From Promethearchaeia archaeon (GTDB taxonomy: Archaea > Asgardarchaeota > Lokiarchaeia > Sigyniarchaeales > SOKP01), in assembly GCA_046497275.1 (NCBI GenBank), contig JAWOFX010000054.1, positions 90,001-122,000 on the forward strand: a DNA stretch of 32,000 nucleotides, written 5' to 3'. Shown here piece after piece: positions 26,674 to 32,000 of this stretch. The notes under the pieces are model-generated. The model had not been told where the DNA came from, made no database searches, and worked only from the letters and a program-made list of their open reading frames with translations. Made by a program: the position numbers and the translations under genes. Position 1 is the stretch's first letter. Every line of letters begins with the position of its first letter.

Positions 26674-28758
26674 TCATTTCCATTTTGGATCCATAAAATT
26701 TAGAAGTTCTTCTATAGAATTAGTTGGGGTTTTACATGTCTTATCTACGCATACATATCCCGTTGGCTTTTCGTTAATTTTATCAAAATATCTAATATAA
26801 TCTGAAATTTCATCTATTTTCGGGTTAGACTCATCCGCAGGTCGAAAAATAAATGTTTTATTTGGTAAAAAGTATCTATTTATTTCTTTAAGTATTTTTT
26901 CCGTCTCTTTCATTTCATTATTGCCTACAATAACTAAAGTATATGAAGGACCTATAGCAAAATCAAGGGCAGTCATTAAATGAGTAAATGCCACTGGATT
27001 TTTGCGTATTAATTCGGCAAAGACCATTCCTATATATTCAGCTTTTTTCTCTAGTTCATGATCACCCGTGAAAAAACTTAGCCGTAATAAATTTAACATT
27101 GAAACAGAATTTCCAGAAGGGATAGCTCCATCATAAAATTCTTTCTGTCGAACTAATAGTTCCTCATTCTGATCTGAGGTGAAATAAAAAGCACCGATAT
27201 TATCATCCCAGAAATTATCTATTTGTTTTTGATTAAAATTGAGTGCGAGTTTTATGTATTTAGGATTAAAAGTGGTTTCATATAATTCGATTAATCCCCA
27301 TATGAAAAACGCATAATCATCAAGATATCCTTCAATCCCCGCCTCCCCTTCCCTATAACGATGAAATAATCTTTCTTCAGAAGGTTGTAAATTTTCTAAT
27401 ATGAATTCAGTTGCCTTAATAGCAGCGTCAGAATATTTTTTTTCATTAAGAATTCGAGCACCTTTTGCCAGTGCTGCAATCATTAATCCATTCCAATCCG
27501 TTAAAATTTTATCATCCTTACCAGGATGTACTCGTGTTTGTCTATATTCAAATAATCTTTGTCGAATTTGTTCAATTCTCATTTTAAGCTCATCATAAGT
27601 CATATCAAAGTTAACTGCTAATTGGGAAAATGATTTGTTTCTATGTAAAATATTTTTCCCCGTATTTTTTCTAGTAGCTTCTTCAAGATAATTTCCACTT
27701 TTTTCTACATTATACACACTTACAATTATTTTTGCGTCTTTTTCATTCAAAATCTCATGAAGATCATTGTGCTCCCATACATAGAATTTACCCTCAACCC
27801 CATCACTATCCGCATCTTCAGCTGAATAAAATCCACCTTCAGATGATGTCATATCCCGAAGAACATATGTGAAAATCTCGCGAGCGGTCTCGGCATAAAA
27901 TTCTTTATTTGTTGCTTGATATGCTTCTAAATATGCGATGGCTAAAAGAGCTTGATCATACAACATCTTTTCAAAATGAGGGACTAACCACTTTTGATCT
28001 GTTGAGTATCTATGAAAACCGAATCCGATTTGGTCAAATATTCCTCCCATTCGCATATTATTTAAAGTCTTTTCAACCATTTCAAGAGCATGGTTATCAT
28101 TTGTTCTTTTCCAGAATCTTAAAAGAAATGAAAGTTGATGTGGAGAAGGAAATTTAGGAGCTTGTCCAAATCCCGCATATTTATCATCAAACCGCATCGA
28201 TAATTGATTGAATGCTTTACTTAAGGTTTTTTTATCTAATTTATTTCCGGGTTGCTCATCAGCAACTTCTTGAACAGCATTAATTATCTGCTGAGTACCC
28301 CTTAATAATTCATCTCGCTCATTTTCCCATAGATCTTTAATTTTTTTTATGAGATCAATTAAACCTGTACGACCGAATCGACTTTCCTTAGGAAAATATG
28401 TGCCTGCGAGGAATGGCTTTTTATCTGGTGTCATAAAAATAGTTAACGGCCATCCCCCAGACCCTGTTAAAACTTGACAAACTGTCATATAAACTTTATC
28501 AATATCAGGTCGCTCTTCTCTATCAACTTTTATTGAGATAAAGGTTTCGTTCATTAATTTAGCTACTTGTGGATCCTCAAAAGATTCATGGGCCATGACA
28601 TGGCACCAGTGACAAGTCGAGTAGCCAATTGAGAGGAATATTGGTTTATCCAGCTCTCTAGCTTTATTAAAAGCCTCCTCTCCCCATGGATACCAATCAA
28701 CGGGATTATTTGCATGTTGAAGTAGGTAAGGACTTTTCTGATCTGCTAATTTATTCAT
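26674..28758 (-). CDS. Thioredoxin domain-containing protein, YyaL/DUF255/SPATA20 family
   Basis: [47 protein letters not shown] and DGAIPSGNS motifs. Confidence 0.95.
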
Positions 28759-28778
28759 AATTATATTATATCTCGATC

Positions 28779-29351
28779 TTATTTTTGATTCAATTTATTT
28801 CCATAATCATTAATATAACAAAATTCACTTAATTCTTTTCTTGGAGGTCTTTGTTTCTCTCCTAATTTCATATTATCTGATAAATCAGGATTTATGGTAT
28901 CCGAGTGTTTTCCAATATTTACCAATGTAATTAATCGCATATTTTCAGGGATATTCAAAATTCTTTTTGCTTCTTTTTCATCATAGCCTGCAATAGGATG
29001 TGCCACCAATCCTAATTCAGTAGCTCTTAAAATTATAAAAGCGGTCGCTAATCCCGTGTCAAATAAGTAATATTTTCGCTCATTTATGAGACAATCATCT
29101 TCTGGTTTACTAAAAACGGCTATTATCATTGAAGCCTTTTCAATCCATTTATTTGTTTTAGTTAAGGTTTTAAAAAGACGTTCAAGCTGTTGTTTTTCAT
29201 ATACAAAAATGAAATTCCACGGTTGTTTATTAAAGCAAGAGGGCGCGATTTGCGCAACATGAGCTAAATCATTTATTAAATCCTTATTGATCTCTACAGG
29301 ATCGAGTGAACGGTAGGCTCTTCTTTTTTCGATAGCTTTTTGAACATTCAT
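28779..29351 (-). CDS. Nitroreductase family flavoprotein
   Basis: [23 protein letters not shown] and [10 protein letters not shown] motifs. It lies 20 nt upstream of YyaL on the same strand, so the two probably form an operon. Confidence 0.92.
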
Positions 29352-29597: not shown

Positions 29598-30776
29598 TTG
29601 TTAAATAATCACTCATTATTGAATAAAATTGTTTGTACTGAATGTGGTTCAGAATATAATATTACCGATTTGCATAATTTATGCACATCTTGTGGAAAAG
29701 TTCTATTCCCTCAATATGATTTAGAAAAGGCAAAAGAATTTCTTTCTAAAGATCAGATCCAGCAAAAAAAAGTCTATAACATCTGGCGTTTGAATGAAAT
29801 AATGCCTGTTAACAACTCTAAATATAGGATATCTCTTGGAGAAGGTTGGACTCCAATCATAAAAATAAATAATTATGGAAAAAGTATCGGCTTAAACAAT
29901 TTATATATTAAAGACGAGGGTCAGAATCCAACTGGAACCTTTAAGAGTCGTGGTCTCTGTGCAGCAGTTTCCAAAGGATTAGAATTAGGTGTAAAAGATT
30001 TTGTAATGCCCAGTGCAGGAAATGCAGGAGCAGCTTTATCCGCATATACGGCTCATGCTGGAGTTAACGCCCATATTTTTGCTCCCAAAGATGCTCCGGA
30101 ATTTATTCTAAAAGAAATAGAAGTTATGGGAGGAGATCTTGTATTAGTTGATGGGTTAATAGACTATGCTGGAGAGAAAGCGAAGATTGCTCAACAAGAA
30201 AATGGTTGGTTTTCTGTTTCCACTCTAAAAGAGCCTTATCGGGTAGAGGGAAAAAAGACGATGGGATTAGAATTAGCGGAACAATTCGATTGGACTTTAC
30301 CTGATGTCATAATTTATCCCACTGGAGGCGGTACTGGAATCGTTGGAATGTGGAAGGTATTTTCTGAATTAGAAAAACTTGGATTAATAGGGAGTGAAAG
30401 ACCTCGTATGGTTTCTGTACAACCCACAGGATGTCAACCTATCGTACGTGCATTCAAAGAGGGTAAAAAATATGCGACCAAATGGGAGGATGCACATTCA
30501 TTTGCTGGAGGGATAAGAGTACCAAGTGCAATAGGTGATTATTTAATATTGGAAGCCCTTAAGCAGTCCAATGGTACTGCTATTGCTGTACCTGATTCAG
30601 ATATCAAAATAGCTATGTATGATTTAGCGAGAATTGAAGGTATTATGCTTTGTCCTGAAGCAGCAGCAACCGTGGATGCAGCAAAAAAATTAGTAGAAAG
30701 AGGATTTTTAGACAGTGATGAGAATGTTGTATTATTTGGAACAGGTTCTGGTTTAATCACTCCGAATGATTGGTAA
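29598..30776 (+). CDS. thrC: Threonine synthase family (fold type II PLP) enzyme with N-terminal Zn-ribbon-like Cys pairs
   Basis: SLGEGWTP, KDEGQNPTGTFKSRG, PSAGNAG, EGKKTM, PTGGGTG and CPEAAA motifs; TTG start after GAGGA. Exact substrate is not certain. Confidence 0.8.
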   Translation: MLNNHSLLNKIVCTECGSEYNITDLHNLCTSCGKVLFPQYDLEKAKEFLSKDQIQQKKVYNIWRLNEIMPVNNSKYRISLGEGWTPIIKINNYGKSIGLNNLYIKDEGQNPTGTFKSRGLCAAVSKGLELGVKDFVMPSAGNAGAALSAYTAHAGVNAHIFAPKDAPEFILKEIEVMGGDLVLVDGLIDYAGEKAKIAQQENGWFSVSTLKEPYRVEGKKTMGLELAEQFDWTLPDVIIYPTGGGTGIVGMWKVFSELEKLGLIGSERPRMVSVQPTGCQPIVRAFKEGKKYATKWEDAHSFAGGIRVPSAIGDYLILEALKQSNGTAIAVPDSDIKIAMYDLARIEGIMLCPEAAATVDAAKKLVERGFLDSDENVVLFGTGSGLITPNDW

Positions 30777-30849: not shown

Positions 30850-32000
30850 CTAGGGATCATTACGAAGAGGATGTCGCGCATTCTCTTTATTTTCTAATGC
30901 TTCATTTACGTCGGGATTTCCTTCTAAAGCTTTCCTAATAGCATTTCTAGTCGCTTTATAATTATTGATGAAAACTCTTTTCCTTCTACTCGCAGTGGGA
31001 TGGACGAATACATTTATAATTATAACCAATTCCTCTGTAAGTTCAGAGGGGATGATTCCATCTTCCACACATTGCATAATTGCCTTTCCTATCGCTGCTT
31101 GTGCTGGACCATAGACTAAACTTGAATGGCGAAGTGATGAAACTTTTACCGTTGGAATCATAATGGATGCAGGTTTAACTTGCATGTTAGGCTCTAATAT
31201 CACTTGAAGACCTTCTACATCTTTTTTTGAGTGGGATAAAGCTAGAGCATAAGCCTCTCCTACTGGACCATCTTTTCTTCCTATAATTAGATCAACATGG
31301 GCTAATTCAGCTCCTTCTCCAACAAGTGATTCTCCTACTTTTAAATTGAAATTTTCAATCTTTTTTGGAGTAATTCCTATTGAATAGAATTTACTTGAAA
31401 TTTCTTTTTCTTTGAATTCAAATTTCAGTTCTTTTTTCTCGATATAACCTATCTTTTCCAATTCTACCCGCAGTTCATCCCTTATTTCATAAGATAATGT
31501 GTCACCTAATATTACTGGTTTTCTTGTAACTCCTACAGGAATTCCCATCATATTTAAACACTCTTTAGCACCTAGGGCTCCACTGTTAATCAATAGTCTG
31601 GCTAATTTTTGGATCTTTTTTTGATGAGTTTGAGCTTCCTTTAACTCATTTTTTTTAACATGATTATATATCTTAAGCCATTCTTTTGGAAGAACATTCG
31701 CCGACCCTAAAATCGCGCCAGCCGCACCTCCTGCTAATGCTCCTAGAAAATTTTCATCCCATCCTATCAACACAGATATTTTATCACTTAGCTTCTCTAA
31801 TAAAGCAGAAAAATATTTATAATCTCCACTAGAATCTTTGATTCCTACGAAATTTTCAATTTCTGCAAGATCTTCTACAACTGTCCAAGGTAATTCTATC
31901 CCAGTACAAACTGGAATGTTATAAATAACAATAGGAATATCTGTATTATCAGATATTTCATAATAATGATCATACAACCCTTTTGCTTTAGGCTTTAAAT
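30850..32000 (-). CDS. fae: Fusion of a DapA/NAL-family class I aldolase domain and a C-terminal formaldehyde-activating enzyme domain; 5' end is outside the window
   Basis: The frame is open to 32000 (LKPKAKGLYDHY). DHDPS-family YNIP, GIKDSSG (Schiff-base Lys, codon 31839-37), GWDE and GSANV are followed by Fae-type VGESLVGEG..AHVDLIIG.KDGPVG, KP..MIP, GPAQAA, VFVHP and NY.AT..AI..A. Confidence 0.9.
   Translation of the reverse strand, partial: LKPKAKGLYDHYYEISDNTDIPIVIYNIPVCTGIELPWTVVEDLAEIENFVGIKDSSGDYKYFSALLEKLSDKISVLIGWDENFLGALAGGAAGAILGSANVLPKEWLKIYNHVKKNELKEAQTHQKKIQKLARLLINSGALGAKECLNMMGIPVGVTRKPVILGDTLSYEIRDELRVELEKIGYIEKKELKFEFKEKEISSKFYSIGITPKKIENFNLKVGESLVGEGAELAHVDLIIGRKDGPVGEAYALALSHSKKDVEGLQVILEPNMQVKPASIMIPTVKVSSLRHSSLVYGPAQAAIGKAIMQCVEDGIIPSELTEELVIIINVFVHPTASRRKRVFINNYKATRNAIRKALEGNPDVNEALENKENARHPLRNDP

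Follow-up and report, generated by a model that had tools for sequence, protein, structure and literature searches.

An aldolase fused to formaldehyde-activating enzyme, with an orphan TIM-barrel partner, in Asgard archaea: a candidate link between pyruvate, the one-carbon pool and homoserine

The stretch of DNA analysed here, called the window, is 32,000 nucleotides long and comes from a Promethearchaeia archaeon (assembly GCA_046497275.1, 3.85 Mb in 188 contigs, 98.9% complete); it corresponds to positions C44:90001-122000, where C44 is contig JAWOFX010000054.1. At its right edge lies a minus-strand open reading frame (ORF) that is open at the edge and runs from 31998 to a TAG stop at 30850-30852, covering 382 amino acids. 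The whole gene, read from the genome, spans C44:120850-122337, begins with ATG and encodes 495 amino acids, in which an aldolase domain of the DHDPS/NAL family (dihydrodipicolinate synthase/N-acetylneuraminate lyase) is followed by a complete formaldehyde-activating enzyme (Fae) domain. A second ORF, encoding a TIM-barrel protein of 426 amino acids, ends 19 nt upstream of the fusion gene on the same strand, with GGAG in the spacer. The features of the locus are listed here with window coordinates; those beyond 32000 are window-equivalent positions.

30850..32000, minus strand: aldolase-Fae fusion gene, 3' 382 codons plus TAG; extends past the window to window-equivalent 32337 (C44:122337)
30865..31338, minus strand: Fae domain, residues 334-491 (Pfam, NCBIfam, alignment to 1y5y, motif table)
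within 30865..31338, minus strand: complete set of Fae motifs, GESLVG, AHVD, GPAQ, NVFVHP, NNYKAT and ARHP
31297-31299, minus strand: codon of Fae His347 in AHVDL (codon mapping)
31291-31293, minus strand: codon of Fae Asp349 (codon mapping)
31339..31455, minus strand: interdomain linker, residues 295-333, 39 residues (Pfam domain limits, alignment)
31456..32000, minus strand: in-window part of the aldolase domain (DHDPS/NAL, class I), residues ~114-294 (Pfam, alignments)
31921-31923, minus strand: codon of aldolase Tyr139
31906-31908, minus strand: codon of aldolase Cys144, in place of the DapA Arg
31837-31839, minus strand: codon of aldolase Schiff-base Lys167
31753-31761, minus strand: aldolase Trp193-Asp194-Glu195
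32357-33637, minus strand, outside the window: orphan barrel gene, 426 amino acids (C44:122357-123637, equal to L006:357-1637)

Both domains lie in a single frame and score far over their cut-offs. The DHDPS domain (PF00701) covers residues 8-294 of the fusion with an E value of 2.9e-77 and matches profile positions 2-287 of 289; the Fae domain (PF08714) covers residues 334-491 with an E value of 1.2e-53 (181.8 bits against a cut-off of 27; profile positions 1-158 of 159), and the NCBIfam Fae model TIGR03126 gives 184.6 bits against a cut-off of 118. An original prediction, made from the letters of the window, had read the edge ORF as a DHDPS/NAL barrel joined to a full-length Fae domain, and the retrieval of the upstream 5' end that it called for, together with these matches, bears this out. 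Its placement of the Fae His of AHVDL at codon 31299-97 was exact (His347). The linker that it described is also present, at 39 residues slightly longer than the ~30 that it gave. Its picture of the locus missed one element, the orphan barrel just past the window edge.

The fusion is neither a chimera nor the product of a lost stop codon, either of which would have confined it to one assembly, because two-domain proteins and single-frame matches are found in many genomes. In a whole-protein search, the best 120 cluster representatives are all 481-505 amino acids long, carry both Pfam domains and are 76-96% identical to the query; those among them that are named are mostly labelled Promethearchaeota, Lokiarchaeota or Hodarchaeota. 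In a set of 301 genomes from the phylum, ten families contain full-length matches read in a single frame and 42-80% identical, and the fusion is present in hundreds of Asgard genomes. A wider scan with one genome per species found it in many Bathyarchaeia (52-59% identity) and also in genomes labelled Thermoproteota, Methanofastidiosia, Thermoplasmata and Anaerolineae/Chloroflexota (42-49% identity). Searches of ~8.4 million full texts returned no paper describing a DapA-Fae or DHDPS-Fae fusion, in agreement with the earlier statement that no characterised one was known, and the papers on Fae together with Lokiarchaeota or Asgard archaea do not, to judge by their titles and abstracts, concern it. 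The fusion belongs to a widespread enzyme family, apparently one without a published description.

The genome holds two DHDPS-family genes and two Fae genes, so that each half of the fusion can be set beside a relative from the same organism. The second DHDPS-family gene, on contig C28, is the canonical dapA: it encodes 299 amino acids, lies directly beside dapB and carries the motif YNVPSRTG. When the fusion is aligned with DapA, NanA, YagE and YjhH of E. coli K-12, it keeps the Schiff-base Lys167 (GIKDSSG), Tyr139 (YNIP) and GTTGE at residues 49-53. The alignments place a Cys where solved DapA structures have the Arg that binds aspartate semialdehyde. In E. coli DapA this is R138 (YNVPSRTG), which binds the carboxylate of the semialdehyde, and Arg is kept there and in the genome's own DapA. 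A first motif table covered 23 fused proteins from ten families (the window gene and 22 others). In each of the 23 the Schiff-base Lys is kept within KDSSG and the Tyr within YN[IL]P, and G[TS]TGE is retained as well; the DapA GDD is replaced by G[WHYF]DE, and the Arg position holds C, V or L. Further fused rows shown with the tree (Bathyarchaeia, Chloroflexota, Thermoplasmata and Methanofastidiosia) have C, V, A or T. Arg appears in none of these proteins.

At the compared positions the window fusion reads YNIPVCTG and IGWDEN, while E. coli DapA reads YNVPSRTG and SGDDAS, NanA reads YNIPALSG and NGYDEI, and YagE reads YNFPALTG and CGYDDH (the YagE/YjhH pattern being YNFPxLTG and GYDD). The pocket positions of the fusion match NanA and YagE/YjhH, not DapA. 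NanA (N-acetylneuraminate lyase) and YagE/YjhH (2-keto-3-deoxy-pentonate/gluconate aldolases) are pyruvate-forming retro-aldolases of hydroxylated 2-oxoacids, and the likeness extends from family membership to a hydrophobic residue in place of the DapA Arg and a G-aromatic-D-(E/D) motif lining the aldehyde pocket. Profile scores lean the same way. The dapA hidden Markov model (HMM), TIGR00674, separates the fusion from the genome's own DapA by 105 bits (232.6 versus 337.6), and the NanA HMM ranks the fusion above that DapA (191 versus 147 bits, with a cut-off of 281). A tree against characterised family members had been proposed with the original prediction. It was run by maximum likelihood with four of them, E. 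coli DapA, NanA, YagE and YjhH, all on long branches whose point of attachment within the set of fusions is only loosely placed. E. coli DapA and the DapA of this genome form one clade (100/98 support), and the fusion falls outside it. In the loci examined the fusion is never beside dapB, and its conserved neighbour is the orphan barrel. The evidence supports the conclusion that the fusion is an extra paralogue and not the cell's DapA. Pocket motifs, tree and HMM scores together argue that its aldolase domain is, as read from sequence, a pyruvate Schiff-base aldolase with an aldehyde pocket of the hydroxy-acid type, not the DapA type.

Intact, too, is the Fae half of the protein. It aligns with the solved Fae of M. 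extorquens (1y5y) over 160 residues with an E value of 3e-31, and AH(V/I)DLIIG, GPAQ, VF(V/I)H, NY and HP are common to the two; the motifs are shared with the genome's own Fae-Hps as well. The catalytic residues among them are those reportedly assigned in the study of the 1y5y structure. All single-copy fusions, the window gene included, keep the complete Fae motifs. In families f9, f11 and f23 (loci L023, L024, L025, L026 and L027), and also at loci L100, L110 and L113, the fusion occurs as tandem pairs in which the motifs are divided: the upstream copy has lost AHxD and ARHP and kept GPVQ, the downstream copy has kept AHxD, FVHP and ARHP and lost GPAQ, and both copies retain the aldolase Lys and Tyr. 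This complementary loss argues that the Fae site is under selection and shared between subunits, and it suggests that the tandem pairs form a heteromeric enzyme.

The host genome has markers of the tetrahydromethanopterin (H4MPT) one-carbon (C1) pathway, as the original prediction had supposed. These are two copies of Ftr, a fragment of Mch and the second Fae gene, a canonical 432-amino-acid Fae-Hps on contig C43. The sole Mch match is a 35-residue piece at C184:3603-3707 that is severed by the contig end, so the pathway is incompletely assembled; a Mer-like match scores under its cut-off.

The orphan barrel has no match among Pfam or NCBIfam families. Many Asgard-labelled genomes carry it at 74-80% identity, yet at the 50% level its cluster representatives number only 473. 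In its AlphaFold model (pLDDT 88), a helical bundle at the N-terminus leads into a (beta/alpha)8 barrel. Foldseek comparisons of the model with the PDB and Swiss-Prot return class II fructose-bisphosphate/tagatose-bisphosphate aldolases at TM scores of only 0.3-0.45, and VIA-align comparisons of the barrel models give flat lists with Z of about 12-15, generic TIM-barrel matches. An Atlas search finds unnamed clusters of ~310 amino acids (TM 0.73-0.74), some of them with weak U32 labels. In lineages that lack the long barrel, a protein of ~315 amino acids, likewise an orphan, stands beside the fusion in 8 of 8 loci (f11, f14, f15, f20 and f23). This short form is modelled as a barrel as well (pLDDT 79), and both of the Atlas clusters that the long barrel matches are matched by it too (TM 0.86 and 0.78 for the short form). 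Comparison of the two by hhalign gives a probability of 18% and an E value of 1.3e-3, with one suggestive local motif only. From the shared Atlas structure clusters, the two forms appear to be of the same type.

The barrel adjoins the fusion in all four close loci. When 80 species loci were scanned with HMMs of both forms, 55 had a barrel no more than 3 kb from the fusion, the long form in 50 of them and the short form in 5. In Asgard loci the barrel gene lies upstream and is read in the same direction as the fusion, whereas in most Bathyarchaeia loci the two are neighbours that diverge. The retention of this pairing while the gene arrangement changes is good evidence of a functional link. In family f1, to which the window belongs, the fusion is missing from ~18 genomes, and it is in these same genomes that no barrel was detected, including single species inside two genera; the genomes are related, so these are not independent events. 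A complex prediction for barrel and fusion gave a score of 0.00, below the mark, which counts neither for nor against binding.

A possible pathway for the barrel is indicated by its other gene contexts. In three families without the fusion (f7, f24 and f26), a class I/II aminotransferase gene follows ~25-50 nt after the barrel in 23 of 24 loci, and in most of these loci with enough contig it is followed by homoserine dehydrogenase (NF004912, 415 bits against a cut-off of 373) and then by aldehyde:ferredoxin oxidoreductase (AOR). The barrel heads a barrel-aminotransferase-homoserine dehydrogenase-AOR cluster in fusion-less Asgard families. One barrel homologue lies directly after panB, on a contig of sample ERZ25039489. 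PanB adds a pterin-borne C1 unit to a 2-oxoacid, and its product is ketopantoate. For its part, 4-hydroxy-2-oxobutanoate (HOB) is the transamination partner of homoserine (PMC8879981). Both contexts thus involve 4-hydroxy-2-oxoacids.

Based on these data, we propose that the fusion is a bifunctional enzyme made up of an N-terminal lysine-Schiff-base (class I) pyruvate aldolase and a C-terminal formaldehyde-activating enzyme. The aldolase domain would form the pyruvate enamine on Lys167 and add or release formaldehyde, thereby making or consuming HOB; this step is suggested by the chemistry of the family and by the fused Fae domain. The Fae domain would exchange formaldehyde with H4MPT, as motif conservation and the H4MPT enzymes of the host lead one to expect, giving the net reaction pyruvate + methylene-H4MPT <-> HOB + H4MPT. 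The barrel would be co-transcribed with the fusion and, from its gene contexts, act in the same pathway at the HOB/homoserine node. We assign this explanation as a whole a probability of about one half. Which aldehyde and which 2-oxoacid take part, in which direction the reaction runs, channelling, H4MPT dependence and the action of the barrel are all predicted features of it. Reversible cleavage of HOB to pyruvate and formaldehyde had already been put forward in the original prediction; the independent gene contexts of the partner now point to the same node, with substrate and direction still conjectural.

As to direction, a catabolic reaction, in which homoserine or HOB yields pyruvate and a C1 unit for the Wood-Ljungdahl pathway, fits because of the AOR context and the canonical homoserine dehydrogenase in the genome. 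The anabolic direction is chemically equally possible.

Several observations weigh against this proposal. It is the fused Fae domain alone that suggests formaldehyde as the aldehyde, and the pocket motifs resemble those of aldolases that use larger hydroxylated aldehydes. The genome has a normal homoserine dehydrogenase, beside an ACT-domain gene, so an anabolic route from HOB to homoserine is not needed and there is no gap for it to fill. In f9, the largest family, the two genes are not linked, and there are families with the fusion but no barrel and others with the barrel but no fusion. Divergent barrel homologues lie in sugar or sugar-acid clusters, which fit a sugar-acid pathway too. Loci L013 and L015 are such sugar-type contexts. 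One homologue has an IlvD/EDD dehydratase, an MBL-fold hydrolase, Dak1/Dak2 and IclR as neighbours; the neighbours of another are an MFS transporter, GntR, two PfkB kinases and a sugar-isomerase-like barrel. The fusion also passes the dapA equivalog HMM, with 232.6 bits against a cut-off of 206.15. Finally, neither Mch nor Ftr was found in four of the five fusion-bearing Chloroflexota genomes (G301, G303, G304 and G305, of unknown completeness; loci L113, L101, L105 and L108), while the fifth (G302) has the two side by side. Because of these four carriers, H4MPT is perhaps not the universal carrier, and the pterin may be a different one in some lineages, including bacteria.

Of the rival explanations, the one that survives best makes the aldolase domain of the fusion a sugar-acid aldolase with an attached formaldehyde scavenger. 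It would cleave a 2-keto-3-deoxy sugar acid to pyruvate and a C2-C3 aldehyde, as do YagE/YjhH, 2-keto-3-deoxygluconate (KDG) aldolase and NanA, and Fae would only trap formaldehyde from another step, possibly that of the orphan barrel. The hydrophobic residue in place of Arg and the G-aromatic-D-E motif agree with this reading, the sugar-type neighbours just described belong to non-Asgard barrel homologues, and E. coli yagE and yjhH each lie beside an IlvD/EDD-type xylonate dehydratase. However, a covalent fusion conserved across phyla and a Fae site split in complementary fashion between tandem copies argue for coupled activities. In addition, the loci examined show no conserved gene for a sugar-acid dehydratase, kinase or transporter next to the fusion, and the commonest alternative context of the orphan barrel is aminotransferase plus homoserine dehydrogenase, not sugar genes. 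We consider this rival unlikely.

A slightly smaller chance is given to a PanB-like hydroxymethyltransferase. Here the pterin would hand its methylene group to the enamine formed from some 2-oxoacid that is not pyruvate, such as 2-oxobutanoate, and formaldehyde would perhaps never be set free. Its chemistry is the same as that proposed above, and the barrel homologue next to panB is in keeping with it. PanB (PF02548) was not found in the window genome (G000, 98.9% complete) or in the same-genus genome G183; most genomes of the family have it. DHDPS/NAL-family enzymes characteristically use pyruvate, however, and the pyruvate-binding GTTGE, Tyr and Lys are unchanged in the fusion. PanB also co-occurs with the fusion in 67 of 76 genomes in f9, 18 of 19 in f14 and 11 of 11 in f29. 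A role for the fusion as a general substitute for PanB was rejected because of this co-occurrence in most fusion-bearing genomes.

Least probable is a true DapA with a mechanistically unlinked Fae domain: the equivalog score, the DapA identity of the closest solved structures by sequence and the name '4-hydroxy-tetrahydrodipicolinate synthase' given to relatives at NCBI and JGI favour it, but the missing Arg, the separate dapA-dapB pair with its much higher-scoring DapA, the tree and the absence of a dapB neighbour in the loci examined leave it very little room.

The proposed aldolase-Fae enzyme has precedents of several kinds. One is Fae-Hps (NF009833), where Fae is also covalently joined to an aldolase-type enzyme that handles formaldehyde, in archaea with the H4MPT pathway, and the analogy drawn in the original prediction holds at the level of architecture. 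The fusion differs from Fae-Hps in its reversed domain order, with Fae C-terminal, in its partner, a DHDPS/NAL Schiff-base pyruvate aldolase instead of an Hps with the orotidine monophosphate (OMP) decarboxylase fold, and in its predicted co-substrate, pyruvate instead of ribulose 5-phosphate. Correspondingly, the NF009833 model matches only the Fae part of the fusion (positions 2-161 of 392; 157.7 bits against a cut-off of 274). The principle of Fae-Hps was already known; what would be new here is the joining of Fae to a different aldolase family, the substrate predicted for it, and the orphan protein that accompanies it.

Within its own family, the fusion resembles DapA (TIGR00674; E. coli b2478) in fold, PF00701 membership, Schiff-base Lys, catalytic Tyr and GTTGE, and departs from it in having Cys for Arg, GWDE for GDD and an added Fae domain, as well as in tree position and gene neighbourhood. 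NanA and YagE/YjhH are closer in the pocket, yet the fusion scores under their curated cut-offs, and these enzymes have no Fae and act on C2-C6 aldehydes, not C1. PanB offers a parallel to the predicted net chemistry, transfer of a pterin-borne C1 unit onto C3 of a 2-oxoacid to give a 4-hydroxy-2-oxoacid, with an unrelated fold and a metal instead of a Schiff base. The RhmA/HOB aldolase of the synthetic homoserine cycle joins pyruvate and formaldehyde to HOB, which is then transaminated to homoserine (PMC8879981). In that engineered pathway a class II aldolase carries out the HOB aldolase reaction promiscuously, as a side activity, and HOB has been called a non-native metabolite that only promiscuous class II aldolases make (PMC8879981, a 2022 review). 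The fusion, by contrast, is predicted to be a natural class I enzyme that is dedicated to this reaction and works together with a C1 carrier.

A broader and more tentative reading, to which we give clearly less than even odds, is that in Asgard archaea and Bathyarchaeia the Wood-Ljungdahl C1 pool is connected with C3/C4 metabolism by a natural route dedicated to that purpose. Methylene-H4MPT and pyruvate would be interconverted with HOB, and the barrel, aminotransferase, homoserine dehydrogenase and AOR would link HOB to homoserine, aspartate semialdehyde and aspartate. If it exists, such a route would be the natural counterpart of the engineered homoserine cycle, with the barrel as a new enzyme family. 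It would also be an undescribed link between the H4MPT C1 pool and pyruvate/homoserine in abundant subsurface archaea (Lokiarchaeia-type Asgard, Thorarchaeia and Bathyarchaeia), and would change metabolic reconstructions that feed models of eukaryogenesis and sediment carbon cycling. Synthetic methylotrophy, which now depends on promiscuous enzymes, would gain a natural and presumably efficient pyruvate-formaldehyde aldolase. Hundreds of '4-hydroxy-tetrahydrodipicolinate synthase' entries are probably misnamed, and lysine biosynthesis could be wrongly scored as present on the strength of them. The 426-amino-acid orphan barrel is a well-defined target for finding a new enzyme activity.

The remaining genes near the fusion in the window are the following.

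29598..30776, plus strand: threonine synthase, convergent with the fusion gene, with an N-terminal zinc ribbon (CxxC...CxxC); NF006050, 552 bits; not part of the unit
28779-29351, minus strand: nitroreductase-family protein
26674-28758, minus strand: DUF255/thioredoxin-like protein, 694 amino acids, with weak glycoside-hydrolase-like hits

The adjacent threonine synthase was considered as a clue to the pathway and rejected. It is absent from the equivalent position in loci L007-L010, and because the adjacency is not conserved, this neighbour gives no support. Other recurrent neighbours of the fusion were likewise set aside as lineage-specific synteny. In f14 these are CitG, a thiolase, an ADP-forming acyl-CoA synthetase and an rRNA methyltransferase; in f9, two large unknown proteins and an M20 peptidase; and in Bathyarchaeia, TrmI and an M24 peptidase. 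Relative to related genomes, the threonine synthase gene has apparently been inserted between the fusion and the nitroreductase/DUF255 genes, and the peroxiredoxin gene of those genomes is missing at this position in the window genome. In the related Asgard genomes, the DUF255 and nitroreductase genes are syntenic with the fusion, downstream of it, together with that peroxiredoxin gene.

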